Shown: positions 8,390 through 60,626, counted from the stretch's first letter. The stretch is 64,000 nucleotides of DNA from Alphaproteobacteria bacterium (GCA_017470585.1 JAFUYI010000009.1:954-64953), one strand, 5' to 3'. Numbers and translations: made by a program. The notes: generated by a model from the letters alone, not told the origin.

Positions 8390-8863
8390 ATGAAAAAATA
8401 TATTTTAATATTAGGCGTTGCCGGAGTTGCGCTTGGTTCATATTGCGCATACGCTGCCAACTCGGCAACAATGACCGTAACAGCAACAATCGCCCATGAA
8501 GTCAATATCCGTAATATCAGCAATATTGACATCGGCACCATCACTATTGACCCGAGTAAGAGTTCGGGAAGTGTAATAGAAGCTAATTGTGCGTGGGAGG
8601 GTATAGGAGAAGAAGGAAACGGTATAAAATCCATTTCCGGCAGTCCGTGCGGCTATTTCACTGCCGATTTTTCAGGTGGTTGTTCGTTTAATTTTTCGGT
8701 TACACCGGAGGAGGTGTATTGGAATAATATGCACTTCGACTTCGGAGTTGGTAATACCGACACCTCAGGCAGGTGCAGAGTGTGGACAGAATTGGGCTAC
8801 ATTGGCGGCCTTCCGGCGCAAGATACTTATAACGGTAGTCTTACCATAGAATATAATTTGTAA
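8390..8863 (+). CDS. Secreted beta-rich protein, paralog 1 of 9 (SCPU/Csu-pilin-like family; divergent member)
   Basis: 157 aa with signal peptide MKKYILILGVAGVALGSYCAYA and conserved NSATMTVTATIAHEV... The C-terminus GSLTIEYNL is a variant of the family motif. Confidence 0.75.
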   Translation: MKKYILILGVAGVALGSYCAYAANSATMTVTATIAHEVNIRNISNIDIGTITIDPSKSSGSVIEANCAWEGIGEEGNGIKSISGSPCGYFTADFSGGCSFNFSVTPEEVYWNNMHFDFGVGNTDTSGRCRVWTELGYIGGLPAQDTYNGSLTIEYNL

Positions 8864-8893
8864 TATGCAATAAACCGATTCTTTAAAAAAATT

Positions 8894-8927
8894 CCGGCGA
8901 CAGACTTATTTTGCCGCCGGATTTTTT
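8894..8927 (+). terminator. Rho-independent terminator after paralog 1
   Basis: ccggcgacagacttattttgccgccgg followed by attttttg. Confidence 0.6.
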
Positions 8928-9099
8928 GATTGTTTTGCCAAGTTTCAAATAACTATTTGATAATACACAATAAAAAAACTGTGTATTAGATACTTTTATT
9001 TGTTGTTTTTCTTATATAAACAGGATAAAAGCTTGATAAAAATCGGCATCCCCGACCGCATATAAAAAACAATTTCAGCTCAATATTGGGGGAGAAACG

Positions 9100-10830
9100 T
9101 TGGAAATATCGCAAGAAGATAACGATTTATCGGACGGCTCGGCAGAAATATTGAATTTATTAAACTCCGCCGAATTATCGGTAAAAACCAAAATAATGCT
9201 TTTAAATTCCCGACCGCTGTCTGACCAAGAACACGAAAAACGCTATAACCAAATCCAATTAAGCCGCGCCCGCCAGCTTTTGGATGAATATATTATCGGG
9301 CGCGATCTCAAGGATATTATCCAACGACACAAATGCCGCGGAAAAAAAGCTTCATCGGGAAACAATACCGGGCAAGATAAGATGACAACCGCCGAGGCTA
9401 TCAAACAACGGTATCCGCGGCTTGGCGGAAGGCAAATCCGCGATTTTAAAAATCTTGAATTGAAATACATTAAAGAGGCCATTCTTATTGCTCTTGAAAC
9501 CGGACGGGAATTGACCCGCTCTTTGGCTCTGTCCCGCAGTACCCGCAAACGTGCCGACAATGCCAAACAGACAATGCCCGTAAATATCCGGCAGTGGATG
9601 CCCAAAAAGGAAGATTTTGCCGAGGAATACCAAAAATTAAGATTAACGGAAAAAATGGGAGCAACCTCTTTATTTGCCAATATCGGTGTCGGAACCTGCC
9701 TTTTGGAAGCCAACACCCCGATCAGGGTTACGGTTGCCAATGAAAAAGAACCGCGCCGTGCCAAAGCACACAAACGGCTTTATCCCGATTGTGAGGTTAT
9801 TGAGGGAGATATTGCCGACAGCAAAGTTTTTGCCGAAGTAATCAAGGCCCATCGGGAAAAAGACAACAAAATAATGTATATATGCTGTCCCTGTCAGGAT
9901 GCCTCTTCCTTAAATTCCGCAGAAAGCAAAGGGAAAGGAGAGCGAGCGATATTGTTTAAATCGGCATTGGATGTGATTGAGGCGGTTTTGCCGATGTACA
10001 TAGTTTTTGAAAACGTTGCCCGCTGGCTGGAAGGCCGCCCCGAAAGAGCCTTGGACATTTTGGGCGATAAGACCATCGGGAATTACTTGGTTAAAAACCT
10101 TGAATGCTTGGGCTACAATGTAACGGTGGGGATTTTATCGGCGGCAGATTATGAAACTGCCGAAAACCGCGAACGCGCCATTATTTTAGCCTGCAAAAAA
10201 GAATTGGGCGTATGGAAATTTCCCAAAAAACACAAATTCCGCCCTACGGTTTTCGAGGCTATCGGCAATATGAAATCGCTGGAAGCGGGAGAAGTTGATC
10301 CGAATAATAAATGGCATTACGGTCTTCCGCTCGCAAAACACGAAATTGAATTTCTGGCACATACACCAACCGGATGCTCGGCTTGGAATAATGCCAAAAT
10401 CTATCAACCCCGCAACAAAGACGGCTCACCCTCGGGGGCGCAATTTGATGGTTCATATAAAAGAATAGACCCCATCAACCCTTGCAATGTGATTGAAAGC
10501 AGCAGCGGCAGTATCGGCGACATAAACTCCGTTCACTTCGGACGACCTTTGAGCGACGGCACTTATTCAGACAGCCGCGTACTTTCCATTGCCGAGATTC
10601 TGCGCCTTATCGGCACTCCCGATGATTTTTTGGAACCTTTGATATCTCCGCCAAAAGATGATAATGATTTTAACGGTTTAACTTGGAAAGAGGGGCGGCT
10701 GATCGGAGCTGATGAAAGTTTTATCCGCCTCGTTTTGGGGGAACACATGTGTCCGAAACTGTTGCTTAATTTAATGACGACCATGCCGGGAGCAGCAAAT
10801 GACAATGCTCCGCCGGATGATAAAAGTTAA
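9100..10830 (+). CDS. DNA (cytosine-5)-methyltransferase family protein with ~200-aa N-terminal extension; no cognate restriction enzyme nearby
   Basis: 576 aa. Motif I-like SLFANIGVGTCLLEA, motif IV CCPCQDAS (PCQ), motif VI FENV, motif VIII RERAIILA. No endonuclease gene adjacent. Confidence 0.7.
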   Translation: MEISQEDNDLSDGSAEILNLLNSAELSVKTKIMLLNSRPLSDQEHEKRYNQIQLSRARQLLDEYIIGRDLKDIIQRHKCRGKKASSGNNTGQDKMTTAEAIKQRYPRLGGRQIRDFKNLELKYIKEAILIALETGRELTRSLALSRSTRKRADNAKQTMPVNIRQWMPKKEDFAEEYQKLRLTEKMGATSLFANIGVGTCLLEANTPIRVTVANEKEPRRAKAHKRLYPDCEVIEGDIADSKVFAEVIKAHREKDNKIMYICCPCQDASSLNSAESKGKGERAILFKSALDVIEAVLPMYIVFENVARWLEGRPERALDILGDKTIGNYLVKNLECLGYNVTVGILSAADYETAENRERAIILACKKELGVWKFPKKHKFRPTVFEAIGNMKSLEAGEVDPNNKWHYGLPLAKHEIEFLAHTPTGCSAWNNAKIYQPRNKDGSPSGAQFDGSYKRIDPINPCNVIESSSGSIGDINSVHFGRPLSDGTYSDSRVLSIAEILRLIGTPDDFLEPLISPPKDDNDFNGLTWKEGRLIGADESFIRLVLGEHMCPKLLLNLMTTMPGAANDNAPPDDKS

Positions 10831-11447
10831 GCATTGCCATCGGCAAAGCTTAAACCGAATCTTTCAATAAAATGCCTGACAGTTGAGCGATGAACGCCCA
10901 ATATTCGGGCGATTTGCGATTTTGAAACACCGGCTTCCAATAAAATCTGCAAACGCTTGCTGTTTTTGGTGAGCTTGAGTTTTTTAGATTCCGATGCCAG
11001 CGGCCGCCCGAGTTTTTTACCGCGGGCTTTAAGGTTGGCAAGGCTTGATTTGGTGCGTTCGGAAATAAGTTGCCTTTCTATCTCCGCCGCCAACCCGAAA
11101 GCAAAAGCAAGAACTTTTGATTGTATATCATTGCCGAGCCGATAGTTTTCTTTTAAGCTCCAAACGCGGCAGTTTTTGTTAAGACAGATTTCCAAAATTT
11201 TCATAACTTCCAAAAGGGAACGCCCCAAACGTGATATTTCGCAGGTAATAAGCGTATCATTTTCTTGCAATTTGTTCAGAAGTTCACCCAATTTGCGCTT
11301 TTCCAAGGACTTGCGGGAAGATATTTTTTCCTCAATCCAAACATCAATTTTTATCCCCTCTCTGCGTGCAAAATTTTCTATTTCAAAACGCTGATGCTCA
11401 AGTGTTTGATGCGAAGAACTAACTCTAACGTAACCGATTGTAGTCAT
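10827..11447 (-). CDS. Small serine recombinase (resolvase/DNA-invertase family)
   Basis: 206 aa; N-terminal MTTIGYVRVSSSHQTLEHQ with catalytic Ser, resolvase catalytic domain and a C-terminal HTH (SKSQIARILGVHRSTVRHFI). Confidence 0.85.
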   Translation of the reverse strand: MTTIGYVRVSSSHQTLEHQRFEIENFARREGIKIDVWIEEKISSRKSLEKRKLGELLNKLQENDTLITCEISRLGRSLLEVMKILEICLNKNCRVWSLKENYRLGNDIQSKVLAFAFGLAAEIERQLISERTKSSLANLKARGKKLGRPLASESKKLKLTKNSKRLQILLEAGVSKSQIARILGVHRSTVRHFIERFGLSFADGNA

Positions 11448-11612
11448 AATAAAAAACCTCCCAAAATATTAAAAAAACTGATCAATTAAATAGAACGTTT
11501 AAATCAACCGCTTTTCATTAAATATGCACAAATTATCCACAGCCTCTGCCCCGCATGGCTTAAACCTGATTTGAGAATTTTATTTAACATTAAGATTTTT
11601 GCTATTTTCTTC

Positions 11613-11869
11613 TTTACATTGTCAATTTTTTATGATAGGGTGATTTTGAAGTGAATGAAAAGTCACTTTGAGGTGTGGAAACCTCTCATACGATGTCCGC
11701 ACAAGACATAAAACTGCTTCTGGTCGATTATGGCCGGAAGGTGTGGAAATAAGGCTTGCCAAATACCACGCACTGTTTCGTATGACAGTTTCCAACTTCC
11801 GACCACCTCGAGGGATTAGCACCCAACAGGTGGTTTTTTATAACTTTAATAAAAAAGGAAGTTTGAGAT
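11613..11869 (+). promoter_or_regulatory. Promoter (-35 TTTACA, 17 bp, -10 TAGGGT) plus structured leader of paralog 2
   Basis: P1 AAGTGA/TCACTT, P2 GAGG/CCTC, outer helix ggccggaag/cttccgacc, P3a GTGTGG/CCACGCAC, terminator CCACCT...AGGTGG + T6. Confidence 0.6.
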
Positions 11870-12358
11870 ATGAACAAATATATTTTAATGCTAGGCATTG
11901 CCGGTATCGCTCTCGGCAGTTATACTGCCTATGCTAATAATGAAGCCACAATGACCGTTACCGCAACGATTGCCCACGACGTGAGCTTAACCAAAGTTGA
12001 TGATATTCATTTTGATATGACGGTTAACCCTGCCGTGACATCGCTTGAAGATGGTAGATTGTTTCCCGGAGATCCTTATGCTCCTGAGAACAGCGGTGTA
12101 ACTGCATTCAGCGGAAATGTCGGTACTTTCCGAGGCAATATTCCCAATCCTGATGACGCTGTTGAAAACAGCAAATTCACTTTTTCTCCGGATACTTTGA
12201 CAAGCTCAACTTTGAGTGTTTCTTTTTGGGATGGATGTATAACATATAACAGCGGCACATCATTATTTGAGGTTAATCCTATGATTAGTTATCATAACGG
12301 CGCACCCGGCGCAGGTGATCATAATTTCGGAAGTGTGCTTATCACTTACCATCCGTAA
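11870..12358 (+). CDS. Secreted beta-rich protein, paralog 2 (divergent C-terminal half; single Cys)
   Basis: 162 aa; MNKYILMLGIAGIALGSYTAYANNEATMTVTATIAHDVSL..., C-terminus VLITYHP. Confidence 0.75.
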   Translation: MNKYILMLGIAGIALGSYTAYANNEATMTVTATIAHDVSLTKVDDIHFDMTVNPAVTSLEDGRLFPGDPYAPENSGVTAFSGNVGTFRGNIPNPDDAVENSKFTFSPDTLTSSTLSVSFWDGCITYNSGTSLFEVNPMISYHNGAPGAGDHNFGSVLITYHP

Positions 12359-13740: not shown

Positions 13741-13749
13741 GAGAAGCCC

Positions 13750-16618: not shown

Positions 16619-16873
16619 TTTACATTTAACAATTTCTTATTTATAGTAATCATTGAAGCAAGTGATGATTGCTTTGAGGTTTCACCACCTCTTTGTATTC
16701 GTTTGACCAAGTCGTTAATTGGTATTTTCTGGCTTTATGTAGCCGGAAGCCTGCGGAATATGCTATTCTTTTGAAATACGCAGGACTATTTAATGCAAAT
16801 AGTGGTGAACTTCCGGCTGCACCTTGCAGCTTGTATCGTGTATTAACATGATTTTGCAAAGGAAGTTTTTAAG
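16619..16873 (+). promoter_or_regulatory. Promoter (-35 TTTACA, 17 bp, -10 TATAGT) plus structured leader of paralog 3 (most divergent leader)
   Basis: P1 AAGCAA/TTGCTT, P2 GAGG/CCTC, outer helix gccggaag/cttccggc, P3a CCTGCG/CGCAGG, inner hairpin CTATTT/AAATAG. The terminal hairpin GCTGCA/TGCAGC has a poor U-run. Confidence 0.5.
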
Positions 16874-17389
16874 ATGAATAAATATATTTTAATGCTCGGC
16901 GTTGCAGGAGTTGTTCTTGGCTCCTATTGCGCCATGGCCTCCAACTCTGCCACAATGACCGTTACCGCAACGATTGCCCACGATGTCAGCCTCGGCGGTG
17001 TTACAGAATTAAACGTCGGCACCATAACCGTCAATCCGGCAAGTCACGGCAACTGCCATATAACTTATGATTCCAACGGAACGCTAATAGATGCATACAC
17101 TTGTTCAGCCACTAGTGCCACTCCGGGAACTTTTACCGCCAATATTGCCAACCCTGAAGGCTGCAACGGCACTTCTTATGCCTGTTCGGGGTTAAGAGTA
17201 ACAAACGAAATACTCAACCCTTTTGGCGGGGATAGCGGTGATGATTATTGTCATTTTTATATCACTTATGATTCCGGCAACCGATTTAAGGTCTTTCCTT
17301 ATAATTGCTATATTGAAGATATGTCACAAACAGAGTACGGATTGCATACGCATACCAACGCTTTGACTATATCTTATACGGCAAGCTGA
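16874..17389 (+). CDS. Secreted beta-rich protein, paralog 3 (Cys-rich)
   Basis: 171 aa; MNKYILMLGVAGVVLGSYCAMASNSATMTVTATIAHDVSL...FKVFPYNC...LTISYTAS. Confidence 0.75.
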   Translation: MNKYILMLGVAGVVLGSYCAMASNSATMTVTATIAHDVSLGGVTELNVGTITVNPASHGNCHITYDSNGTLIDAYTCSATSATPGTFTANIANPEGCNGTSYACSGLRVTNEILNPFGGDSGDDYCHFYITYDSGNRFKVFPYNCYIEDMSQTEYGLHTHTNALTISYTAS

Positions 17390-18438: not shown

Positions 18439-21400
18439 CTAGAACAGTTGCGGAACATCACTGCTGCCCGAAGACACACCGGACGAACGATTGGTTGTTA
18501 CGACGCCGGTACTCGGCGGAGGCGGAGGTGTTGCGCCGACGGCGGGTTTAGCTCCTCCCGAGGTCGCCGTATCATCTACCAAAGCCATTGCCGGCTGGGC
18601 ATCAGTTGAATCACCCTCATATACTACCGAAGATGAACCGCCGCCCTTGCCGAAGTTAGCCTTACGGTTAGCCTCATCGGCAGCACGCTGATTAGAGGTC
18701 TTTTTATCGTCAATCAAGACATCTTTATATTCTTCGTTGTCCGAACCGTCTGCGGCATTATCGGCTGTGCGCAGCCACAAATCAACTTTCGGGTAAACGA
18801 TAATGCGTGTCCCCGCCGGAATAAAGGTAATTGCACGGATATTTGAGCGGTCGGCCAAAATCTGGTTGAACATCGCTTTGGTATCATCCAAAAATCCTTC
18901 GCGGGCATCGTTCATTGCCTGTTGCTTTGAGGTTTCGTTTTCCGAATCCGAATTTTCATCAGTTGAGAACAAAATCGCCATACCGTTATTAGCCAAAGAA
19001 GTGGCAAACGGCATTGCATATTTTTTGACCAACTGGCGATCCAAATATCCCAGCACGCCGCCGCGTCCCTGTGCGTCGCCGGATTGCGCCGAACTGATGT
19101 CAAACATTACACCGTTGGGCATAATCAAACGATCCCATTGAATGGCAATACGCGCCGAGGCGGAAGCATCTTCGGCTCCAGAACCGCCGCCGCAGGAGCC
19201 TAGCAATCGGCTGCCCGCCGGAATAATTACGTTACGCCCGTCTTCGGCATAAACATTGCGCTCCACAAACGCCGTAACCGGAACTTCGTGTTCGGTGTCA
19301 ATCGAGCGGGCAATAACTGCCGGTATCGGCTTATCCGCCAAAATCATCATATCCATATCAACCGGCAGTGTGGAGATAACTTTTTTAACTCCCCAATCTT
19401 TCTGTTTGCCGTCAAAGGCTTCGCGGCTGTATGAAGTGCTGATCTTTCCGACTTCCATATTCTGCCGTCTTACACCTTGCGCAGCTGATAATGCTGCCGA
19501 ACGCTGCACATCATATCTTTCGCCGGGACCGAATCCGCCGCCGGGGCCTAAATTGCCGGGACCGTCTCCGGTGCCGTATGCACCGCCCTCACCGAATGTT
19601 CCGGCGGGAACGAAAATCTCTCCTTTGTCCGCTCCTTTTGCCGACTCCTCAATACCGATAAGAGAGCCTTGGTCATCAACCACCAAGCCGTCCGGCAACA
19701 ATTTTCCCAAAACTTTGCCCGACTTATTGATAACACTGCCGTCCTCCAAAATATCACCCAGATACTCGCCGTCCGGAGTAAGCGCAATATTTACCGAGCG
19801 TTTATAATCTTTTTCCTGAACTTTGATTGTTCCCACCTCGGGCAGCTTTTGTTCTACAACCGTGGGTTTTTCATACCAATCAAGTTTGGTATTGCCGATA
19901 ATCTGACCGTCATGGCTGACTGCCGAACCGTCCTGATTGAGCATACCGATAAAGTTGCCCTTGGCATCGACAATCTTGTTATCCGAACCGACATAACCTA
20001 TCACATTGCCTTCGGCATCATAAATAGGTCTTCTTTTTTCGGCTTCATAAAACTGCAAAGGCTTGGCGGTTGCAATAATCTGCCCGTCGGTTGCCTCAAT
20101 ATCGCCGGCAACCCCTAATGTACCTATTTGTTCGCCGCTTTTAGCAATTACCTTGCCGTCAAGGTTAAGCTCGCCTATTACCTCGTTTTGCTTGTTGCGG
20201 ATAAAGAAATCACGGTTGCCGCGGGCAAACATTTTAGAAGAATTATCAACGGCAAAGCCCTTTATCATTTTGCCGATACGCTGATTGGTAAATGAAATAA
20301 TACTGCCGTCTGAAGCAATGTAGCCAACCGCATTGTGTTCGTTGTTGTACATATACATATCATATAAGGCAAAGCCTATCGCATTACTGCCGGAGTTGAC
20401 ATTACCGTCAAAATCAACCGTTCCGAGCTTTTGACCGCGTCCGTCAATTACTTCACCTTGTTCATTGACAAGCCCCATGTACTTATTATTGTTATCAAAG
20501 GCATAACGATACTTAAACACCATTCCCGCCGCAGTTCCGGTTCTGGAATTAACCACATCATCAGGGGTGGCATAGCCGATATTCTGTCCGCTTTGGTTTA
20601 CCACACTGCCATCAATCAATGTACGTCCGATAATTTTGGAATCAAAATCAATAACCGGAAAAGTCTGCATCACAACTCCGATGAGTGCGCCTTGTTTATT
20701 GTGCAGACGGTTCTGCCAATCAACGCACCCTAAACTCTCTCCGGAATAATTTATCACTTTACCTTTGGAGCTGACCATACCGACAGTCTGCCCGCCGAAA
20801 TCCGTAACGGATCCCGGAACAATCGCAAAACCGACCACATTGCCGCCCTCGGAAATAACTTGCCGATTGGGTAAAACAATTCCCATGGACACTTCACGAT
20901 AATTTTTAACATCACCGCCGGGGGTTACGGTACCGATAAAATCACAGCGACCGTTAATAACAGGCATCAAACCCAGAACTTCTCCTATGCCTTCTCCGGC
21001 ATTATCCAAAACTATGCCTTGGGAATTTACCCTTCCGGCAACCGCTGCGCCCGCATCATAAATCAACCCTTGATTATCGGCATAGCCCAAGAGCATTCCG
21101 TCATAAGAAACCGCCGTTTTAGCTTGCAAAGCATATCCGATAACCGGCATATATGCACCTGCGGCAGTAGAAACCACACTGCCATCAGGCAAAATCTTGG
21201 CCAAGGGTTTTAAGTCTTGACTTAAAACCTGATTGCCATCGGCCAAAACGCCAAGACTGCCTCCGCGGAAATTAACCGCATACATCGGGTTCACACTGCC
21301 GCCGGAAAGTTTATTGTTCTTATCAATATCAAATCCGTATTGTGTCAATCGTCCGGATTGAACAGCACCGCGGTTGGTTATTTCCCCGTTGGGAGAAATT

Positions 21401-22755
21401 GCCCCGATAACCGTTCCGTTAAGAGAATAAATACCGCCAAGAGCAACCGTGTTACCGTCAATTCCTCCTTCGGGACTATAGACATATCCGAACGGAGAAA
21501 CAATCCTCTTTTCATCACTTTTACTCAAAACCGAGTTAATTCCCGTAACCCCCAACGGTTTGTTGTTGTCATCAACCACAACTTTGCTTTCCAAGGTGGC
21601 TCCGATTACCTTTCCGGAGCTGTTAAGGGCAAAATCTCCTCTCATAATTCCCAAAGGTGTGCCGTTGGGCAAAATCACCTGTCCGTTTTTAAGCGCGTGC
21701 GCCCGCAAAGCCCCCCGATAGTCAAAAATCGGACCGGAGGCAATAACTTTGCCTATTTGCTTGCCGTCGGCATCAAAAATCACATTCCACGGACCTATGC
21801 GCCCTACGATATTACGCCCGCGGGCAATTTTTCCCTCCGGCATAATGCGTCCCAAATATTTACCGGAAGAATCGGCGGCAGTAGCGGCAATATCTGCCAT
21901 AAATCCGATTGTATTGCCTCCGGTATCGGCAATACTGCCATCAATCTGCAAATACCCTATCAGTTTTTCGTTATTGATAACCTCGCCGTTATAAGTAACC
22001 AAACCGATATATTTTCCCGATATATCAAAAGCATAACCTGATTTAACTATACTTCCGATTACCTTATCGGCTTCATCATAAGCAAAACCGTTGGCCTTAA
22101 TGAAACCTATCTGTCTGCCTTCAAAATCGGTAACTTTTCCGCCCGGAGAAACACTGCCGATAAAACGCCCGACCGCATCAATAACCATTTTCGAGGAAAT
22201 TAACCGCCCCTCTAAAATAAAATCATTACCGGAACGTTTATAAGCATAGCCGTCCGGAGAAACAAAACCTATGGTCTGTCCTTGGAGGTTGGCATACATT
22301 CCATCTCCGGTCAAACGCCCTACTGTCTGCCCGTTATCGTCATAAATCAAGCCCGGAAACAAAACCGAACCCAAGATTTCAAATCTGTCATCAACCACCA
22401 AACCGTTAGGCAGAACTTTACCGATAATTTTTCCGGTTGAAAGGCGAACCGTACCGTCATTATTTACTTTACCCAACATACGGTTATCATTGCCAATGGC
22501 AATTCCCCGCGGAATAACACCGCCGATGAGACGACCATCAAAATCCACAATCAAGCTGTCGGCGGTGATATTGCCGATTAACTGATTTTCAAAGCTGACC
22601 ACTTTTCCGTCCGGAATAACCTTTCCGATTAAATCGCCGTTAAAGTCAATGGCCGTAATTTCCTGTGCCATTGCGACCGAAGAGTACAACATCAAAACCG
22701 CCGTTCCTAACAGGCGGGAAATTCTGCCGATTTTGACTTTTAACTTTCCCATCAA
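18439..22755 (-). CDS. virB10: VirB10/TrbI-domain T4SS core protein with ~1000-aa N-terminal tandem-repeat extension
   Basis: 1438 aa. N-terminal signal/TM (LLGTAVLMLYSSVAMA), then about 45 degenerate 20-22-aa repeats (DxxGxxIGxVxxxGxVxD). The C-terminal ~250 aa match the VirB10/TrbI beta-barrel domain (TLPVDMDMMILADKPIPAVIARSIDTEHEVPVTAFVERNVYAEDGRNVIIPAGSRLLGSCGG...IAIQWDRLIMPNGVMFDISS...AITFIPAGTRIIVYP). A Pro-rich C-terminal tail follows. Confidence 0.8.
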   Translation of the reverse strand: MMGKLKVKIGRISRLLGTAVLMLYSSVAMAQEITAIDFNGDLIGKVIPDGKVVSFENQLIGNITADSLIVDFDGRLIGGVIPRGIAIGNDNRMLGKVNNDGTVRLSTGKIIGKVLPNGLVVDDRFEILGSVLFPGLIYDDNGQTVGRLTGDGMYANLQGQTIGFVSPDGYAYKRSGNDFILEGRLISSKMVIDAVGRFIGSVSPGGKVTDFEGRQIGFIKANGFAYDEADKVIGSIVKSGYAFDISGKYIGLVTYNGEVINNEKLIGYLQIDGSIADTGGNTIGFMADIAATAADSSGKYLGRIMPEGKIARGRNIVGRIGPWNVIFDADGKQIGKVIASGPIFDYRGALRAHALKNGQVILPNGTPLGIMRGDFALNSSGKVIGATLESKVVVDDNNKPLGVTGINSVLSKSDEKRIVSPFGYVYSPEGGIDGNTVALGGIYSLNGTVIGAISPNGEITNRGAVQSGRLTQYGFDIDKNNKLSGGSVNPMYAVNFRGGSLGVLADGNQVLSQDLKPLAKILPDGSVVSTAAGAYMPVIGYALQAKTAVSYDGMLLGYADNQGLIYDAGAAVAGRVNSQGIVLDNAGEGIGEVLGLMPVINGRCDFIGTVTPGGDVKNYREVSMGIVLPNRQVISEGGNVVGFAIVPGSVTDFGGQTVGMVSSKGKVINYSGESLGCVDWQNRLHNKQGALIGVVMQTFPVIDFDSKIIGRTLIDGSVVNQSGQNIGYATPDDVVNSRTGTAAGMVFKYRYAFDNNNKYMGLVNEQGEVIDGRGQKLGTVDFDGNVNSGSNAIGFALYDMYMYNNEHNAVGYIASDGSIISFTNQRIGKMIKGFAVDNSSKMFARGNRDFFIRNKQNEVIGELNLDGKVIAKSGEQIGTLGVAGDIEATDGQIIATAKPLQFYEAEKRRPIYDAEGNVIGYVGSDNKIVDAKGNFIGMLNQDGSAVSHDGQIIGNTKLDWYEKPTVVEQKLPEVGTIKVQEKDYKRSVNIALTPDGEYLGDILEDGSVINKSGKVLGKLLPDGLVVDDQGSLIGIEESAKGADKGEIFVPAGTFGEGGAYGTGDGPGNLGPGGGFGPGERYDVQRSAALSAAQGVRRQNMEVGKISTSYSREAFDGKQKDWGVKKVISTLPVDMDMMILADKPIPAVIARSIDTEHEVPVTAFVERNVYAEDGRNVIIPAGSRLLGSCGGGSGAEDASASARIAIQWDRLIMPNGVMFDISSAQSGDAQGRGGVLGYLDRQLVKKYAMPFATSLANNGMAILFSTDENSDSENETSKQQAMNDAREGFLDDTKAMFNQILADRSNIRAITFIPAGTRIIVYPKVDLWLRTADNAADGSDNEEYKDVLIDDKKTSNQRAADEANRKANFGKGGGSSSVVYEGDSTDAQPAMALVDDTATSGGAKPAVGATPPPPPSTGVVTTNRSSGVSSGSSDVPQLF

Positions 22756-42102: not shown

Positions 42103-42368
42103 TTGCCAAGCGAATATTTTTATGTTATTGCTTGTTTGAGGTGAATAATTTTACCTTGAGGTTTCACAGCCTCTTTATATCCGTCAAAGCCGAAACGTAA
42201 TCCGGCTGTTCTGACTTTTATGGTCGGAAGATTGCGAAATAAGGCTTGCCAAATACGCAATACTATTTGATATAAATAGCTGTGAACTTCCGACCACCTC
42301 TAGGAGAACATCTCCCAAAGGTGGTTTCTTTTATTAAAGTTATAAAGAAACTAAAAAAGGAAGTTTTT
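42103..42368 (+). promoter_or_regulatory. Putative promoter plus structured leader of paralog 4 (P1 degenerate)
   Basis: P2 GAGG/CCTC, outer helix ggtcggaag/cttccgacc, P3a ATTGCG/CGCAAT, inner hairpin CTATTT/AAATAG, terminator CCACCT...AGGTGG + tttcttttat, RBS aaggaag. Divergent to virB3. Confidence 0.5.
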
Positions 42369-42854
42369 ATGATGAAAAATTATATTTTAATGCTAGGTAT
42401 TGCCGCGGTGTCCATAGTTTCTTACTGTGCATACGCCAGCAATTCCGCCACAATGACCGTAACCGCAACAATAGCTCATGATGTGAGTTTAACAGTTACA
42501 CGTCAATATAAACTGGGGACAATTACGATTGATCCGAGTCAAACCAGCGGTTCAGGAATAACCACAGGCAACGATGTTAATGGCGGTATAATATCTGTCA
42601 GCGGATATGAAGTTGGTTTATTTACCGCCAATATTCCCAGCGAATATTCTGTTCCCGGACCAGAGCCCGAGGAGGTTTTAAGTATAAGTCCAAGCACCAT
42701 GACAATGGGCGGAATAACATTTAAAGATCCGTTTATTATGTGGTATTCAGGGACAACCTTTGCGGTCGGATATGATAGTATGTCATATACGGGACTTGTA
42801 CCGACTGCGGGAGATTATGAAGACAGCATTAGCATCTCCTATACCGCACCGTAG
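42369..42854 (+). CDS. Secreted beta-rich protein, paralog 4 (no Cys in mature part)
   Basis: 161 aa; MMKNYILMLGIAAVSIVSYCAYASNSATMTVTATIAHDVSL...GLFTANIP...SISISYTAP. Start is ATG at 42369 or 42372. Confidence 0.75.
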   Translation: MMKNYILMLGIAAVSIVSYCAYASNSATMTVTATIAHDVSLTVTRQYKLGTITIDPSQTSGSGITTGNDVNGGIISVSGYEVGLFTANIPSEYSVPGPEPEEVLSISPSTMTMGGITFKDPFIMWYSGTTFAVGYDSMSYTGLVPTAGDYEDSISISYTAP

Positions 42855-42947: not shown

Positions 42948-43361
42948 TTATTCTGCCTGATTATAGTCAAGCAACATTTCCGCCGCTTTGGATAAAAACG
43001 CCGAACGATTGTTGGTAACCTCATCAATTCGCGACATAAGGTCATCATTCATATAAACCGTATATTTGCTAGGCTTTCCGGTTGGAACATATGAAACAAA
43101 TGCAAAAGCGTATTCTTCGTCGTCCGTCCATTCATTCCAATCCTGCCATTCATCTTTTATTTGCCCGATATTGCGCGGTTTTGGCAAAGGTTTGCCTGCC
43201 CGCCTTATATCATCAAGACGAATATTTAATATCTCTATGGCCATTTTATATGCATGATCAATATTTTCGCCACTGGTATAGCAATCCGGAATATCCGGAA
43301 AAACAACACCGACGGAACTTTTTCCCTCTTTGGGTAAGATAAATAATGCCAAGTATTTCAT
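42948..43361 (-). CDS. hicB: Type II antitoxin HicB family (second copy)
   Basis: 137 aa; MKYLALFILPKEGKSSVGVVFPDIPDCYTSGENIDHAYKMAIEILN... Homologous to the 7413-7820 product, with the same WQDW...EW motif. Confidence 0.7.
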   Translation of the reverse strand: MKYLALFILPKEGKSSVGVVFPDIPDCYTSGENIDHAYKMAIEILNIRLDDIRRAGKPLPKPRNIGQIKDEWQDWNEWTDDEEYAFAFVSYVPTGKPSKYTVYMNDDLMSRIDEVTNNRSAFLSKAAEMLLDYNQAE

Positions 43362-43674: not shown

Positions 43675-43927
43675 TTTACATAAAAGATTTTTTGTGCTAG
43701 TTTAGACCTGAAGTGAATGAAAAGTCACTTTGAGGTCTGACAGCCTCTTTGATAGTGTCCGACAAGACAAAAAATTGCTTCTAACCATATTATGGGTTGG
43801 AAGGTGAAGGAATAAGGATTGCCAAATACTTCACACTGTTCTATCAAACAGTTGTCAGCTTCCAACCCCCTCGTTTGTTTGCCGAGGGGGTTTTTAGTGA
43901 TAATATATTAAAAAGGAAGTTTAGATA
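43675..43927 (+). promoter_or_regulatory. Promoter (-35 TTTACA, 17 bp, -10 TAGTTT) plus structured leader of paralog 5
   Basis: P1 AAGTGA/TCACTT, P2 GAGG/CCTC, outer helix gggttggaag/cttccaaccc, P3a GTGAAG/CTTCAC, inner hairpin CTGTTC.../...AACAG, clean terminator CCCCTCG/CGAGGGG + T5. Confidence 0.6.
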
Positions 43928-44461
43928 ATGAAAAATTATATTTTAATGCTCGGTGTAGCGGGATTAGCCTTTGGCTCCTATTGCGCATACGCCGACAATT
44001 CCGCCACAATGACCGTTACTGCGACTATCGCACATGATGTTAGCCTAAAGACTACCGGGGACATAAACCTCGGCACAATTACTGTTAATCCGGCTTATAC
44101 AGGATGGACAGATTGGCAATACAGCGATTCGGGAGTAGTCAGTTATATCAACAAAGGTGCGATTATTTCAGCTCCGGATATTACGGTAGGAACTTTTACT
44201 GCCAATATTTCCAACCCCGAAGCTTGCAGTACCGCAAACGATTATTGCGGAGGATTATATCTTGAATCGGATAACGGCGATGATTTTCTCAGTCTTTTTA
44301 CCGAAAGCGGGAGTGACAGTGCTTGCTTTTTTTATATAAAATACAGCGGTGACGGCAATAACTTTAAGGTTTATCCGCGAAATTGCACTATATATGACAT
44401 ATCAAAAGTCACTCCCGATAGACACACCGGTACATTGATAATCAATTATAATGCTTCATAA
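43928..44461 (+). CDS. Secreted beta-rich protein, paralog 5
   Basis: 177 aa; four conserved Cys (EACS...DYCGGL, SACFFYIKY, NCTIY); C-terminus GTLIINYNAS. Confidence 0.8.
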   Translation: MKNYILMLGVAGLAFGSYCAYADNSATMTVTATIAHDVSLKTTGDINLGTITVNPAYTGWTDWQYSDSGVVSYINKGAIISAPDITVGTFTANISNPEACSTANDYCGGLYLESDNGDDFLSLFTESGSDSACFFYIKYSGDGNNFKVYPRNCTIYDISKVTPDRHTGTLIINYNAS

Positions 44462-50715: not shown

Positions 50716-50992
50716 TTGATTTAGAATAAAACTTATGTTATAGTTTATACTGAAGTGAGTGAAAAACCGCTTTGAGGTCTGAAAACCTCGCAATTGACGT
50801 TTATAAAGAAAAACGTAAAAATTCTTCCTGCTATAATGGTCGGAAGGCAAAGAAATAAGAGATACCTCAAATACTTTGCACTGGTTCAATTGTCAGTTTT
50901 CAGCTTCCGACCACCTCGCGGGTTTGAATACCCAAAAGGTGGTTTTCTTTTAATGTTAACAAAAAAAGAAAATTATAAAGGAAGTAAGAAAG
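50716..50992 (+). promoter_or_regulatory. Promoter (-35 TTGATT, 17 bp, -10 TATAGT with upstream TG) plus structured leader of paralog 6
   Basis: P1 AAGTGA/CCGCTT (with U-G wobble), P2 GAGG/CCTC, outer helix ggtcggaag/cttccgacc, P3a GCAAAG/CTTTGC, inner hairpin CTGgttcaattgtCAG, terminator CCACCTcgcgggtttgaatacccaaaAGGTGG + ttttctttt (50911-50952). The last ~88 nt are identical to the paralog 7 leader. Confidence 0.6.
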
Positions 50993-51523
50993 ATGAAAAA
51001 TTATATTTTAATGCTCGGGGTTGCAGGAGTTGCGCTTGGCTCATATTGCGCCTGCGCGGGCAACTCGGCGACAATGACCGTTACCGCCACAATCGCGCAT
51101 GATGTGAGTTTGACCAAAACCGGTGATTTAGACCTTGGCACAATCACCATCAACCCAGCGTATGAGGAAAGCGATACATATTGGAGTTACGGCTATTCGG
51201 GGATAGTCAATTATGAAGGAGCAGTCATTTCTGCCTCCAATGCGACCCTCGGTACTTTTACCGCCAATATCTCCAATCCTTCCGCTTGCAGTAATGCATA
51301 TGAATCTTGCGGAGGTTTGATGGTTTCCGGAAATAACGGAGAGACTATTGACAACTTCTTTGGAGGGAGCGATAATAGCAATTATTGCCAATTTTTTATT
51401 AAGTACAGCGGAGCAGATAATAACTTTAAGGTGTTTCCTAATGAATGTGGTATATATGATGTTTCCAAAGTCACCACCGGCGAACACTCCGGCACTTTGA
51501 CTATATCTTATAATCCTGAATAA
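50993..51523 (+). CDS. Secreted beta-rich protein, paralog 6
   Basis: 176 aa; prototype of the family: signal peptide, NSATMTVTATIAHDVSLTKTGDLDLGTITINPA, GTFTANISNPSACSNAYESCGGL, NYCQFFIKYSG, NFKVFPNECGIYDVSKVTTGEHSGTLTISYNPE. Confidence 0.8.
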   Translation: MKNYILMLGVAGVALGSYCACAGNSATMTVTATIAHDVSLTKTGDLDLGTITINPAYEESDTYWSYGYSGIVNYEGAVISASNATLGTFTANISNPSACSNAYESCGGLMVSGNNGETIDNFFGGSDNSNYCQFFIKYSGADNNFKVFPNECGIYDVSKVTTGEHSGTLTISYNPE

Positions 51524-51710: not shown

Positions 51711-52823
51711 ATGGAAAAAGATCCCTTCAAAGAATATCTTCGCCAATCCGAACCCGGCAAGCGTGATAAGAGTTATGCTTGGAATACCGCTATCGGTTTG
51801 CAAGATGTTGATGGACTAAAGACTTCGGAATACTTAAAAGATACCGCAATCAAAAATATTGAAGGTGACATTACCATTGATGAAGCGCAAACACTGCTTA
51901 ACACCTATTATAAAGAAAACAATCAAAAAAACAAAAAAGACCGAACCGAAGAAGCCGATAAAGTTTCCCTCCGAATTGCAAAGATTTTATCGGAAAAGGC
52001 TTTCAGTTTTTCTGCAAATGAGTATATTTCCATTCATAAGAAACTGTTTGACGGTATCTATGATTATGCTGGCCGCTTTCGCGATTATAATATTACCAAA
52101 AAAGAATGGGTATTAGACGGAGATACCGTTATTTATGGAACAGCCACTGAATTAAAAGCTACATTGGACTACGATATTTCGCAGGAAAAGAAATTTAATT
52201 ATAAAGGTCTGTCCCCTCAAGAGATTATACATCATTTGGCTTTGTTTATTTCCGGATTGTGGCAAATTCATGCTTTTGGCGAAGGCAACACCAGAACAAC
52301 CGCAGTATTTTTTATCAAATACTTGCGAACTCTGGGTTTTGATGTCACAAATGATATTTTTGCTCATAATTCATGGTATTTCAGAAATGCGCTTGTTCGG
52401 GCAAATTATACCGATTTAACAAGAAATATTCATTCAACCACGGAATATTTAGAGTTGTTTTTAGAAAATCTGTTGTTGGGCAAGAATCACAAACTGCTTA
52501 ACCGAATGATGCATATAAGTCATATATTGGATAGAAAAGTAGATATTGAAGCTTCAAAAGTAGATATTCGGGCTTCAAAAGTAGATATTGAATATCTATG
52601 TCGCGAAAGATTACCGAACATCACAACCAAATCTATCCGGCATATTTTGAAGATTTATGAGACATGTAGTAACACCCGACATTTTGGTCGCAGTGAGATT
52701 ATTGAAATCACAAATCTCAAACCCGCTATGGCTTCAAGGCTACTCAAACTTCTTTTAGACAATGGAATCATTAGGCCTATACAGGGCAAAGGTAAAGGTA
52801 AATATATTTTTGCCATTGGATAA
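51711..52823 (+). CDS. Fic/DOC family protein with non-canonical active-site motif and C-terminal wHTH
   Basis: 370 aa; Fic motif region IHAFGEGNTRTTAVF (canonical HPFx[DE]GNGRxxR is degenerate here). A short tandem peptide repeat SKVDIEASKVDIRASKVDIE lies near the C-terminus. Confidence 0.65.
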   Translation: MEKDPFKEYLRQSEPGKRDKSYAWNTAIGLQDVDGLKTSEYLKDTAIKNIEGDITIDEAQTLLNTYYKENNQKNKKDRTEEADKVSLRIAKILSEKAFSFSANEYISIHKKLFDGIYDYAGRFRDYNITKKEWVLDGDTVIYGTATELKATLDYDISQEKKFNYKGLSPQEIIHHLALFISGLWQIHAFGEGNTRTTAVFFIKYLRTLGFDVTNDIFAHNSWYFRNALVRANYTDLTRNIHSTTEYLELFLENLLLGKNHKLLNRMMHISHILDRKVDIEASKVDIRASKVDIEYLCRERLPNITTKSIRHILKIYETCSNTRHFGRSEIIEITNLKPAMASRLLKLLLDNGIIRPIQGKGKGKYIFAIG

Positions 52824-52912: not shown

Positions 52913-53188
52913 TTGATTTCGAGTAAAATTTATGTTATAGCTTATACTGAAATGAATAAAAAGTCATTTTGGGGTGTAGGAACCTTTTGTAAAGCGTCAG
53001 CAAAGACGTAAAATTTGCTTTCAGCCGTTGCTATGGTTGGAAGGTGTGGAAATAAGGTTTAGCCGAATACCACGCACTGTACTTTACAACAGTTCCTAAC
53101 TTCCGACCACCTCGCGGGTTTGAATACCCAAAAGGTGGTTTTCTTTTAATGTTAACAAAAAAAGAAAATTATAAAGGAAGTAAAGAAT
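52913..53188 (+). promoter_or_regulatory. Promoter (-35 TTGATT, 17 bp, -10 TATAGC) plus structured leader of paralog 7
   Basis: P1 AAATGA/TCATTT (compensatory relative to AAGTGA/TCACTT), P2 GGGG/CCTT (wobbles), outer helix ggttggaag/cttccgacc, P3a GTGTGG/CCACGCAC, inner hairpin CTGTacttta...cAACAG, terminator CCACCT...AGGTGG + ttttctttt. Confidence 0.6.
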
Positions 53189-53734
53189 ATGAAAAAATAT
53201 ATTTTAATGCTCGGCGTTGCAGGGGTTGCACTTGGTTCTTATTGTGCAATGGCCTCCAATTCTGCCACAATGACCGTTACCGCAACAATAGCCCACGATG
53301 TGAGTTTGAGTGTTACTCAAGATATAGATATGGGAACAATCACTGTCAATCCGGCTGTAACAGATAATACGAAATGGTCTTATAACGAAACCGGTGAACT
53401 TTATAATACTGATGGTATAGGCATCATTTCCGCAGATAATGTTACAGCCGGCATTTTTAGTGCTAACATTGCTAATCCCTCTGCTTGCAATAAGGCATAT
53501 CGTGAATGCGGAGGATTGAGCGTTACCGGAAATACTGTATTCGAAGGCAGAACTTGGTCATCTATTAGTAATCTCTTTGGCGAAAACAATGATAACGGTT
53601 GCGATTTTTTTATTCAGTACAGCGGAACAGAAAACACTTTTAAGGTTTTCCCTTATTCTTGTGGAGCAACTATGTCCACCACTACCATCGGTTCGCATTC
53701 TGGAACTTTAACTATCAGCTACAATCCGGAATAA
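53189..53734 (+). CDS. Secreted beta-rich protein, paralog 7
   Basis: 181 aa; conserved termini and four Cys; variable centre. Confidence 0.8.
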   Translation: MKKYILMLGVAGVALGSYCAMASNSATMTVTATIAHDVSLSVTQDIDMGTITVNPAVTDNTKWSYNETGELYNTDGIGIISADNVTAGIFSANIANPSACNKAYRECGGLSVTGNTVFEGRTWSSISNLFGENNDNGCDFFIQYSGTENTFKVFPYSCGATMSTTTIGSHSGTLTISYNPE

Positions 53735-53754
53735 TAAAACCTCAAATACCTATA

Positions 53755-57188: not shown

Positions 57189-57235
57189 TTTTTCTCTCCT
57201 TTTTGAAAGAGAATATATGTCGGCAAAATGATTTT

Positions 57236-58564: not shown

Positions 58565-58645
58565 AACAAAAACCTTGAAAAGGTTTATAATCATCGTTTT
58601 ATGACTTGTCAATACCCGTATTTTTGACAATTTAAAACTTTTTGC

Positions 58646-58910
58646 TTGATTTAGAATAAAAATTATGGTACAGTTTTTCTGAAACGGACGGAAAGCCGTT
58701 TTGAGGTCTGATAGCCTCGTAACAACCGTTTGTACCGAAGCGTAAATCGGTATATATCCGATCTTTATGGTTGGAAGGTGTGGAAATAAGGTTAGACCGA
58801 ATACCGCACACTGCTTGTTGTTAGTAGTTATCAGCTTCCAACCACCTCGCGGGCTAAAGCCCAACGGGTGGTTTTCTTTATAAATTTGATAAAAGAAGGA
58901 AGTTTGAATA
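58646..58910 (+). promoter_or_regulatory. Promoter (-35 TTGATT, 17 bp, -10 TACAGT) plus structured leader of paralog 8
   Basis: P1 AAACGG/CCGTTT (fully compensatory), P2 GAGG/CCTC, outer helix ggttggaag/cttccaacc, P3a GTGTG/CACAC, terminator CCACCTcgcgggctaaagcccaacgGGTGG + ttttcttt. Confidence 0.6.
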
Positions 58911-59449
58911 TGAAAAACTATATTTTAATGCTCGGCATTGCCGCGGTTGCTCTTGGCTCATATTGTGCCTATGCCGGAAATTCCGCCACGATGACTGTTA
59001 CTGCCACAATCGCCCATGATGTGAGTTTGACCAAAACCGGCGATTTAGACCTTGGCACAATCACCACCAACCCGGCGTATGATGGAGATGACACAGATTG
59101 GTCGTATGATTATACAGGAAACATTATTTATTATACACAAGGTGCTATTGTGTCAGCTCAAGATACTAGGGTTGGTATGTTTACCGCCAATATTGCAAAT
59201 CCCGCAGATTGTAATGGAATAGATATTCCTTGCGGAGGATTGAGCGTTACAGGAAATATTGGTTACTCCTCCATATATAATCTCTTTGGCGGAAATGATA
59301 ATAGTAATCACTGCGAATTTATCATTAAAGCCAGTGAGCCGGAATATAACTTTGCTGTATTTCCTTTTTCTTGCTCTATAAATGATGTATCAAAAGTCAC
59401 CACTGGCGAACACTCCGGCACTTTGACTATATCTTATAATCCTGAATAA
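58911..59449 (+). CDS. Secreted beta-rich protein, paralog 8
   Basis: 179 aa. The first ~52 aa and last ~20 aa (plus ~35 nt downstream) are near-identical to paralog 6; the centre is unrelated. Confidence 0.8.
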
Positions 59450-59604
59450 CAAATTAAAAACGAATCGGACGGAGAGGAAATTCTCACCTCTCCGCCAAAA
59501 TTTTAAAAATCACCGAATATTATGTGGGTTTTTACAATCTTGGGAACGATTATATATTTTTTTACCGTCTTTTATTTTTATTCAGCAAAGAATTTGCTGT
59601 CAAA

Positions 59605-59692
59605 TTTCCCAAAAATTTGGAAAAAACGCTTTATTTTTCCCAAAAATTTTGTTAGAATCATTTTATCATTAAAAAATTTCCCAAAAATTTGG
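59605..59692 (+). repeat. Three direct repeats of tttcccaaaaatttgg (imperfectly palindromic) ending at an SD (ggagg)
   Basis: Copies at 59605-59620, ~59634-59650 (one base differs) and 59677-59692; the last abuts ggaggtttt-ATG. Confidence 0.5.
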
Positions 59693-59699
59693 AGGTTTT

Positions 59700-59801
59700 A
59701 TGAATTTACCGGTTGAAGAAGTTTTCATTACAGACACATCAAAATCTTACCAATACCACATTTGGCAGAAGGAAGGAAAAATCAGATTAAAGTTACCATA
59801 A
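59700..59801 (+). CDS. Possible 33-aa small ORF (MNLPVEEVFITDTSKSYQYHIWQKEGKIRLKLP) with strong SD
   Basis: ATG 7 nt after GGAGG. Below the ORF-track cut-off. No homology inferable. Confidence 0.2.
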   Translation: MNLPVEEVFITDTSKSYQYHIWQKEGKIRLKLP

Positions 59802-59827
59802 GTTTTAGGTGTTTTGCAAAATTTTGC

Positions 59828-60092
59828 TTTACATAAAAGATTTTTTGTGCTAGTTTATGCTTGAAGTGAATGAAAAGTCACTTTGAGGTGTCGTAACCTC
59901 TCCCAAATTGTCCGACAAGACATAAAAATTGCTTCTAACCGTACTATGGTTGGAAGGTTGGGAAATATAAAGAATACCTGACACTGTTATTTGGGACAGT
60001 TACGAACTTCCAACCACCTCGCGGCTTTAAAGAGCCAAAAGGTGGTTTCTTTTATTAAAGTTATAAAAAAATTAAAAAAGGAAGTTTAGATT
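59828..60092 (+). promoter_or_regulatory. Promoter (-35 TTTACA, 17 bp, -10 TAGTTT) plus structured leader of paralog 9
   Basis: P1 AAGTGA/TCACTT, P2 GAGG/CCTC, outer helix ggttggaag/cttccaacc, inner hairpin CTGTtatttgggACAG, terminator CCACCT...AGGTGG + tttctttt. Confidence 0.6.
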
Positions 60093-60626
60093 ATGAAAAA
60101 TTATATTTTAATGCTCGGCATTGCCGGGGTTGCTCTTGGCAGTTATACTGCTTATGCTTCCAACTCGGCAACGATGAATGTAACCGCCACCATCGCCCAC
60201 GATGTGAGCTTAAACGTTACCGACGACATCGACTTTGGAACCATTACTATCAATCCGGCTGCTCTTCAGGAGGCGAACATACTAACAATTATGTACAATC
60301 ACAACGGAACGATCATGAGTAAAGACACCGGCATTATCAGTGCCACAATGGCCTCTCCGGGAGGATTTACCGCCAATATTCCCAATCCGTCCGCTTGCAG
60401 TGCGGCAAGTGATTCTTGCGGAGGATTAGACTTACCCAACACCAACTCAGGTGAACTTAAGTTCACAGGTGCCACATATTCTTATTGTCAAATGTATATT
60501 AAATATACAGGAAATGCGAATGAGTTTAAAATGGTTCCTGTCGAATTTGCTATTGTTTCCAAAGATATAAATCTCAATGGCGAATATTCAATGGAGGTAA
60601 CCATATCTTACACTCCGGAAAGCTGA
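60093..60626 (+). CDS. Secreted beta-rich protein, paralog 9
   Basis: 177 aa; MKNYILMLGIAGVALGSYTAYASNSATMNVTATIAHDVSL...PSACSAASDSCGGL...YCQMYIKY...VTISYTPES. Confidence 0.8.
   Translation: MKNYILMLGIAGVALGSYTAYASNSATMNVTATIAHDVSLNVTDDIDFGTITINPAALQEANILTIMYNHNGTIMSKDTGIISATMASPGGFTANIPNPSACSAASDSCGGLDLPNTNSGELKFTGATYSYCQMYIKYTGNANEFKMVPVEFAIVSKDINLNGEYSMEVTISYTPES

Follow-up and report, generated by a model that had tools for sequence, protein, structure and literature searches.

The DNA considered here is a 64,000-nucleotide (nt) stretch of one strand from Alphaproteobacteria bacterium (GCA_017470585.1 JAFUYI010000009.1:954-64953), hereafter called the window, in which an earlier note, made from the sequence alone, had described nine genes for small secreted proteins resembling spore coat protein U (SCPU)/Csu-type pilin subunits. 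Our analysis suggests that these genes encode a family of pilin-fold surface proteins, not demonstrably of the SCPU type, and that a leader attenuator probably gates their expression. The family comprises not nine genes but at least 5% of all genes in this genome, and every copy is an autonomous monocistronic unit composed of a promoter, a leader, a ribosome-binding site (RBS), an open reading frame (ORF) and a terminator.

All nine ORFs are present in the window, intact and on the plus strand, and the coordinates given for them in the note hold for all copies save copy 8, which starts at 58910 and not at 58911; a six-frame motif search found no tenth copy in the window. Alignment of the upstream regions revealed that conservation extends over about 270 nt ahead of each start codon, and that none of the nine copies departs from a common position of the sigma-70 promoter: a -35 element reading TTTACA, TTGATT or TTGCCA, a 17-nt spacer and a -10 element (TAGGGT or TATAGT, for example), TG-extended in all but one of the nine. 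On the 3' side of the promoter follow, in this order, a 197-nt element (the leader), an A-rich spacer, the RBS AAAGGAAG and the ATG codon, and beyond each ORF lies an unrelated terminator hairpin of its own. A generic scan for promoters and terminators stayed at background (52 found vs 48.9 expected) and caught the promoter of copy 6 only, so that these assignments rest on positional conservation in the alignments. The nine units are the following (CDS, coding sequence; aa, amino acids; the bit scores refer to the covariance model of the leader or to the resemblance of its core to sRNA-Xcc1, a small RNA, both described below):

Unit 1, 8139..8863 (+): promoter 8139-8167 (TTTACA-17-TAGGGT, TG-extended); leader RNA 8172-8363; CDS 8390-8863, 157 aa, divergent Cys pattern.
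Unit 2, 11613..12358 (+): promoter 11613-11641; leader 11646-11840, core scoring 25.4 bits against sRNA-Xcc1; CDS 11870-12358, 162 aa, Cys scaffold lost.
Unit 3, 16619..17389 (+): promoter 16619-16647; leader 16653-16850, with a divergent terminator and the lowest covariance-model score (117 bits); CDS 16874-17389, 171 aa, extra Cys.
Unit 4, 42103..42854 (+): promoter 42103-42131 (TTGCCA-17-TATTGC); leader 42136-42331; CDS 42369-42854, 161 aa, mature part without Cys.
Unit 5, 43675..44461 (+): promoter 43675-43703; leader 43708-43897; CDS 43928-44461, 177 aa, four Cys.
Unit 6, 50716..51523 (+): promoter 50716-50744 (TTGATT-17-TATAGT); leader 50750-50949; CDS 50993-51523, 176 aa; the copy used for AlphaFold.
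Unit 6 leader core, 50838-50920: sRNA-Xcc1-like, 34.1 bits.
Unit 7, 52913..53734 (+): promoter 52913-52941; leader 52947-53145; CDS 53189-53734, 181 aa.
Unit 7 leader core, 53035-53116: sRNA-Xcc1-like, 27.9 bits.
Unit 8, 58646..59449 (+): promoter 58646-58674; leader 58679-58878; CDS 58910-59449, 179 aa.
Unit 9, 59828..60626 (+): promoter 59828-59856; leader 59861-60052; CDS 60093-60626, 177 aa, three of the four Cys.

The association between leader and gene is strictly one-to-one. A covariance model built from 21 leaders detected exactly one leader before each of the 38 family genes found in the window and 11 other loci, and no orphan leader in the same DNA. All of these 38 copies are full-length, and their aligned upstream regions contain the promoter and the RBS, which were mapped precisely for the nine window copies. 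We also considered whether the unit might be the cassette of a mobile element and rejected this, as homology between units ends at the UP region of the promoter and at the stop codon; terminal repeats were not systematically searched for.

The modelled leader consists of three 5' hairpins, a three-way junction (helices P1, P2 and P3), two long-range pairings and the top of a terminator. In this model 98.0% of the alignment cells are paired, compared with about 42% (36-45%) in controls in which the partner strand was slid, and compensatory double changes are found at 29 pairs and in 195 cells, values that none of 500 shuffles reached. Within the junction, P1 (9 pairs) is 98.4% paired with 3 pairs compensated, P2 (6 pairs) is 100% paired with 5 compensated, and P3 (4 pairs) is 100% paired with 2 compensated. 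Invariant G-U pairs, for example 28/167, indicate that the sense RNA is the strand that folds. The two long-range pairings join columns 32-36 to 160-164 and 43-49 to 147-154 (in copy 6, within about 50780-50915); their sequences differ in almost every copy, yet they are complementary within each. Such a copy-specific 'address' may prevent cross-pairing between leaders, or it may be mere compensated drift.

When folded by default, that is with RNAalifold and as single-sequence minimum free energy (MFE) structures, the leaders adopt another arrangement: a 20-bp interrupted long-range helix (21 of 21 MFE folds), an alternative partner for P1 (16 of 21) and the full terminator (20 of 21). The terminator helix pairs columns 171-178 with 199-206 and is followed by a U-run just before the RBS, while the alternative partner of the 5' strand of P1 is formed by columns 79-85. 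Compensatory change is found for both arrangements: of the 21 sequences, 13 have U-A at the P1 pair 100/171, 6 have C-G and 2 have U-G, and in some copies G82 and G83 are compensated against C100 and C99. Columns 166-174, which make up the 3' strand of P1, are shared in part with the long-range helix (165-169) and in part with the 5' strand of the terminator (171-174). This overlap is the anatomy of a terminator-type switch, and we infer that switching is the putative function of the leader.

The core of the junction has a counterpart in Rfam. For four of 20 leaders the top match at E<=10 is sRNA-Xcc1 (RF02221), in each case over the full length of that family (1-87) and at the same place, with 34.1 bits as the best score; no leader has an Rfam match at gathering level, and the similarity is a resemblance and not membership. 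sRNA-Xcc1 was described in Xanthomonas as a discrete RNA of about 88-100 nt (88-nt), and published accounts treat it as an sRNA acting in trans rather than as a leader. In Xanthomonas integron cassettes it precedes symE, in the APSE phage an ORF6N gene, and some genomes have it in several copies (seven in Xylella). The leaders share with it the three-way junction, a P1 of the type GGxxGGAAG/CTTCCxxCC followed by CACC, a P2 with AAUA and GAAUA, and the position upstream of a small gene. They differ from it in their length of 197 nt, the 5' domain of three hairpins, the two covarying long-range pairings to the junction and the built-in terminator, and in being found with the pilin-like family only.

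Turning to the proteins, all nine window copies begin with a signal peptide of the type M-K/N-x-Y-I-L-M-L-G-V-A-G-V-A-L-G-S-Y-C-A-Y-A, followed by the near-invariant segment NSATMTVTATIAHDVSL, and end in a C-terminal strand of the GTLTISY type. Invariant columns of the nine-copy alignment include A26, T27, M28, V30, T31, A32, T33, I34, A35, H36, V38, I171 and Y173, in line with the conserved signal peptide, N-terminal segment and C-terminal I-x-Y motif that had been noticed earlier; the proteins look Sec-exported, in agreement with the note, which had called them secreted. A lipoprotein or a type V pilin was discarded as an explanation, the Cys of the signal peptide lying outside any lipobox and being substituted in copies 2 and 9. 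The pattern of Cys residues likewise follows the description in the earlier note, each of copies 5-8 having four and copy 9 three, whereas copies 1 and 3 have extra or shifted ones and copies 2 and 4 have lost the scaffold. The central regions, which the note had called largely unrelated, can in fact be aligned from end to end (39-70% identity to copy 6) and have in common the mid-protein motif G-x-F-T-A-N-I-x-N-P-x-x-C.

The strong conservation of the 5' part of these genes had been thought to extend even to the DNA level. It reflects amino-acid constraint instead: the proportion of synonymous differences (pS) is near saturation there too, being 0.55 for signal-peptide codons and 0.63 (0.626) for N-terminal codons, with proportions of nonsynonymous differences (pN) of 0.17 and 0.12 (0.116), respectively. 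Near-saturated pS combined with low pN means that this end is not being homogenised at the DNA level, and that purifying selection at the amino-acid level acts on the N-terminal extension. In this extension hydrophobic residues alternate perfectly (M28, V30, A32, I34, V38, L40), and the most conserved parts of the fold itself are its first strand, LGTITINP, and its last, GTLTISY. A second subfamily has another signal peptide (MTNKTFLILLLAGVSYTAYNA) and another N-terminal motif (AVSENFEISTTIDHEIVLG), with the same C-terminus and the same leader RNA, and retains the core T-I-x-H-[DE]-[IV] (TIDHEI vs TIAHDV); a more distant third group, represented by proteins P0171 and P0175, carries the motif ENSDTMSVSATIAHDANV.

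Second subfamily members: the gene at 680-1246 of locus L004; proteins P0126, P0131, P0144, P0161, P0169, P0170, P0173 and P0176.

No homology search connects these proteins with a described family. Pfam and NCBIfam gave no meaningful match for the nine copies, nor did Pfam for 37 diverse members, the single hit to DUF4402 (E=1.1) in the Pfam scan being noise; the SCPU family PF05229 was not matched at E<=1 by the nine copies or at E<=10 by 37 diverse members; and a profile search of all PDB sequences returned 0 matches. For a direct comparison, a CsuA/B reference was checked against PDB entry 7zl4 and 23 PF05229-annotated homologues, mostly from Acinetobacter, were aligned; hhalign compared the family alignment with this CsuA/B alignment at a probability of 0.3% (E 0.19). 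SCPU/Csu membership thus lacks support from sequence, and to judge by sequence these proteins constitute a new, narrowly distributed family. Foldseek reached an E-value of 0.34 to CsuA/B, with weak fold matches to the structures 6fqa_D and 7zl4_B. The C-terminus does resemble that of the verified CsuA/B at the level of a motif (GEHSGTLTISYN vs GDYKDTLLVTVNF).

The more general idea of a pilin-like β-sandwich has support from structure prediction. AlphaFold2 models of copy 6 have predicted local distance difference test (pLDDT) scores of 84.4 (full-length) and 90.2 (mature part only), with blocks above 90 from residue 40 on, and both are all-β sandwiches from which the 17 conserved N-terminal residues are left out, unstructured and modelled with low confidence. 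The best structural matches in Foldseek are to chaperone-usher pilins, namely Caf1, PapA, the pilin domain of PapG, FimI and PapF; generic Ig-like domains match structurally almost as well. In agreement with the earlier note, a Pfam scan of nearly all large ORFs of the window found no PapD-like chaperone and no usher.

The search with copy 6 retrieved 232 proteins at E<=1e-3. At least 83 paralogues bear locus tags of one rumen metagenome-assembled genome (MAG), IJ689, among the 120 matches listed, which also include a few from the MAGs IJ529 and IJ677; the IJ689 tags span 00080-07975 in steps of five and so imply about 1,600 genes. Every family member is presently annotated as 'hypothetical protein'. 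A scan of genome contigs gave three loci, all from MAG RGIG4925 (the species representative, from roe deer rumen), and the contigs derive from a study of ruminant gut MAGs (Xie et al. 2021, PMC8199421). When a profile of 37 mature sequences was run against 1.84 billion representatives, 63 matches were obtained, about 59 of them plausibly genuine. The remaining four are long repetitive proteins (884-5100 aa) that are spurious or probably so: P0125 and P0172 match solely where they repeat a short motif (GTFTANAN or GTITVNP, for instance), and P0174 and P0177 were set aside, without inspection, for a similar multi-stretch pattern. In unrelated metagenomes, the 17-mer AACTTCCRACCACCTCG was matched in 87 stretches, 80 of which were made into loci; by the covariance model none of the 80 has a leader, and we regard these matches as chance.

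Elsewhere in the genome the copies occur on both strands, often as divergent pairs, so the same-strand layout seen in the window is local. On other contigs they stand singly among housekeeping genes (suf, htpG, topA, dnaN, gidA, asmA), and one lies beside a prophage. The UvrB protein of the window is 80-81% identical to those of the gut organisms 'Azospirillum sp. 47_25' and Candidatus Scatocola, both placed in Rhodospirillales by NCBI and, on this protein, the closest named relatives, and the contigs encode flagellar, lipopolysaccharide (LPS) and Fe-hydrogenase genes. The organism would thus appear to belong to a lineage of anaerobic gut commensals. A Rickettsiales-type endosymbiont, considered because of the duplicated virB8 and the giant type IV secretion proteins, was set aside in view of the UvrB identity, the hydrogenases and the LPS and flagellar genes.

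The copies are old and mosaic. Most pairs of paralogues are 41-74% identical in DNA, and synonymous sites are saturated throughout (pS 0.55-0.75), which places the duplications far back. Against this background several diverged pairs share identical tracts. Between copy 1 and a copy from a different contig, identity is 100% over the tract -35 to +265 (about 300 nt), compared with 55-70% in the leader and 70-90% further 3' outside this tract; copies 6 and 8 have an identical 3' end and 3' untranslated region; and copies 6 and 7 have an identical leader terminator. Segment by segment, pS between copies 6 and 8 runs 0.555, 0.152, 0.724 and 0.083, and the pairwise homoplasy index (PHI) test is significant (p=0.002, 254 informative sites). 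The mosaic structure, which the note had seen in the cores, is therefore real, and it is consistent with occasional short-tract gene conversion, which must be infrequent given the synonymous saturation between most copies. Diversifying selection, also suggested earlier, could not be demonstrated from the ratio of nonsynonymous to synonymous change, pS being saturated; the only recent pair has a pN/pS of about 0.6. Across samples, the copy-5 locus is at least 99.9% identical, with an unchanged protein, in five metagenome samples, and a second locus is 99.99% identical between two. The samples are nearly clonal, and this stability accordingly argues against rapid in-place switching only.

Taken together, these observations lead us to favour, tentatively and at somewhat less than even chances, the view that the family consists of pilin-fold proteins that are exported to the surface and have a docking strand in common, and that their expression is gated by a leader attenuator. 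The size of the family, its novelty in sequence, its predicted fold class, the pairing of one leader with one gene, the covariation of the RNA, the columns common to terminator and P1 and the mosaicism are observations, whereas export and surface location, polymerisation and the switch with its signal are inferences. The proteins would be small, probably Sec-exported, apparently disulfide-stabilised Ig-like β-sandwiches of chaperone-usher pilin topology, in which the invariant amphipathic N-terminal 17 residues could act as a docking or donor strand and the first and last strands (LGTITINP and GTLTISY) as the common interface that receives one. Any paralogue could then dock a common partner, be it another subunit, a chaperone or a sorting machine, and the diversity of the exposed surface would come from the variable loops. 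At the RNA level, the sigma-70 promoter would fire into the leader, in which the Xcc1-type junction competes with the alternative fold. The default fold would end transcription and leave an RNA of about 200 nt, and a signal stabilising the junction would weaken the terminator and allow the pilin-like gene to be expressed; the antiterminator would be the junction, which the two long-range pairings may lock as pseudoknots. The repertoire would in this way be controlled copy by copy in RNA and not by rearranging DNA into an expression site, and its diversity may stem from duplications of long ago, from loops whose change is relaxed or diversifying and from gene conversion over short tracts. A bolder form of the idea, which we judge improbable, is RNA-switched surface variation, whereby constitutively transcribed, bistable leaders would normally terminate and a signal or chance would open one or a few copies, producing a changeable coat or a heteropolymeric fibre without DNA rearrangement.

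Several points weigh against an attenuated family of pilin-fold proteins. The Pfam, NCBIfam, PDB-profile and hhalign searches gave no sequence link to any pilin family, and Pfam scans of the window and seven loci of about 20 kb (L004, L006, L007, L014, L103, L104 and L105), together about 208 kb or about 13% of the genome, turned up neither a PapD-like chaperone nor an usher. To our knowledge, there is no precedent for some hundred major pilins that are alternatives to one another and are transcribed from separate promoters. On the RNA side, the Xcc1-like P1 junction appears in 0 of the 21 nested MFE folds, the Rfam scores of 25-34 bits are far under the gathering score of 53, and the leader may simply be an sRNA gene in its own right, with the mRNA behind it under separate regulation.

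The main rival dispenses with polymerisation. It holds that these are exported β-sandwich proteins forming a variable coat, an adhesin or binding-module repertoire or a set of decoys against phage, protists or host antibody, with the N-terminus as a sorting or anchoring signal for an outer-membrane or secretion machine. The lack of assembly genes in the sampled DNA and the near-equal similarity to generic Ig-like domains speak for it, as does the retention in the second subfamily of the invariant His-Asp/Glu of the N-terminal motif, which suggests specific recognition over a plain β-strand; the alternating hydrophobic N-terminus and the jointly conserved first and last strands are, however, what donor-strand complementation predicts, and the N-terminal segment lies outside the fold in two models. 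We consider this rival possible but on the doubtful side. Less credible still is the earlier note's own view, that these are genuine archaic (sigma-type, SCPU/Csu-like) chaperone-usher pilins with their assembly genes elsewhere in the genome. It can draw on the fold matches to chaperone-usher pilins and the weak ones to CsuA/B (6fqa_D, 7zl4_B), on the CsuA/B-like motifs at both termini, on the N-terminal extension outside the fold and on a diderm organism with LPS genes in which a chaperone-usher system is possible; it is countered by the failure of all 37 members to match PF05229 at E<=10, by the hhalign probability of 0.3%, by the absence of a chaperone or usher from the sampled 208 kb and by genes that are scattered singly among housekeeping genes and not arranged in fimbrial operons.

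Classical antigenic variation, with silent donors recombining into one expressed locus as in msp2/p44, pilE/pilS and vlsE, would fit the conserved ends and variable cores, the short identical tracts in diverged copies, the significant PHI test and the serine recombinase genes near some copies. The anatomy of the genes nevertheless largely refutes it, all 38 copies being full-length with promoter, leader, RBS, start codon and signal peptide: a complete transcription unit at every copy needs no dedicated expression site of the kind that the earlier note had proposed to look for. The copy-5 locus, moreover, is unchanged in five samples and synonymous saturation shows conversion to be infrequent, so that we hold this explanation to be very improbable. 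A link to the type IV secretion system (T4SS) encoded in mid-window, making the proteins pilus-associated or periplasmic substrates of that system, seems equally remote. The nine copies do flank the virB-like cluster at 17458-42075, and copy 3 abuts virB11; but copies are equally dense on seven other contigs, by suf, htpG, dnaN, topA, gidA and prophage genes and with no T4SS near, and the known pilus proteins VirB2 and VirB5 are helical and not β-sandwiches.

Among known systems, the closest to the protein is the chaperone-usher pilin subunit, the closest to the RNA is sRNA-Xcc1, below threshold, and the closest to the logic of the whole is the multigene surface-variation family. Like Caf1, PapA, Fim and CsuA/B, the proteins are predicted exported subunits of about 150 aa with a predicted Ig-like sandwich, predicted disulfides, an amphipathic N-terminal extension outside the modelled fold and a conserved C-terminal strand of the form G-x-[YH]-x-[GD]-T-hydrophobic with a near-terminal aromatic residue. 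Unlike those pilins, they have no detected sequence or profile homology to them and no chaperone or usher in the DNA sampled, and are encoded not in one operon but in at least 83 dispersed monocistronic copies, each preceded by a structured leader. With Anaplasma msp2/p44, Neisseria pilE/pilS and Borrelia vls the family shares dozens to about a hundred paralogues, conserved ends, variable cores and segmental gene conversion; it differs from them in having no silent cassettes and no expression site, in its fold and in the stability of the examined copy across samples. The leader, for its part, resembles terminator riboswitches and attenuators in placing an intrinsic terminator directly before the RBS, with the 5' strand overlapping a helix of a covarying junction domain, and in having two mutually exclusive predicted folds, although no known aptamer class matches it and it is attached to about a hundred paralogues of one gene family.

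Here a new pilin-fold family, exceptional in its number of copies, is combined with a leader RNA that is likewise new, covaries richly and precedes each copy. If our reading is true, uncultured alphaproteobacteria of gut and rumen have assembled surface proteins of pilin fold into a very large repertoire, and the dedicated RNA leader of each copy represents a logic other than the DNA-based switching of classical antigenic variation. The new protein family may extend donor-strand-type assembly beyond the known chaperone-usher operons, and the 197-nt leader is a new RNA class whose unusually rich covariation makes it attractive for structural and ligand work. The same reading could also give a cis-regulatory role to the widespread and unexplained sRNA-Xcc1 motif, which precedes small genes in phages and integron cassettes.

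Among the genes surrounding the family in the window is the following cluster:

17458-42075, minus strand: virB-like type IV secretion cluster with VirB11, VirB9/CagX, two VirB8 paralogues, VirB4 and several large ORFs without a Pfam match.

Within it, the TrbI/VirB10 protein (18439-22755, 1438 aa) is fused to at least nine 'beta-flower' repeats, the neighbouring 1839-aa ORF at 22752-28271 consists almost wholly of beta-flower, DUF3659 and RHS-like repeats, and the 1308-aa ORF at 31678-35604 has no Pfam match. HicB antitoxin genes lie just upstream of copies 1 and 5 (7413-7820 and 42948-43361, minus strand), the second adjoined by a HicA gene; the DNA between HicB and the unit is alike at both sites (ATACCG..CGGTATTGTCAAGT), a likeness suggesting that hicAB and a family unit were duplicated together as a larger block. 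Similarly, a Fic-domain gene (51711-52823) separates copies 6 and 7, and the recurrence of the order family-Fic-family on another contig (L105 8621-9706) points to a duplicated three-gene block. A C5 cytosine methyltransferase and a serine recombinase of the resolvase/invertase type are encoded between copies 1 and 2 (9100-11447), and another resolvase is found among family copies on a different contig (L105 5015-5611). At L103, prophage structural genes (terminase, portal, Mu F-like; 2823-8902) end directly upstream of a family unit. Finally, large ORFs of 285-727 aa without a Pfam match are interspersed among the family copies of L004 (1274-3783 and 10657-14667) and could be lineage-specific secreted proteins or effectors.

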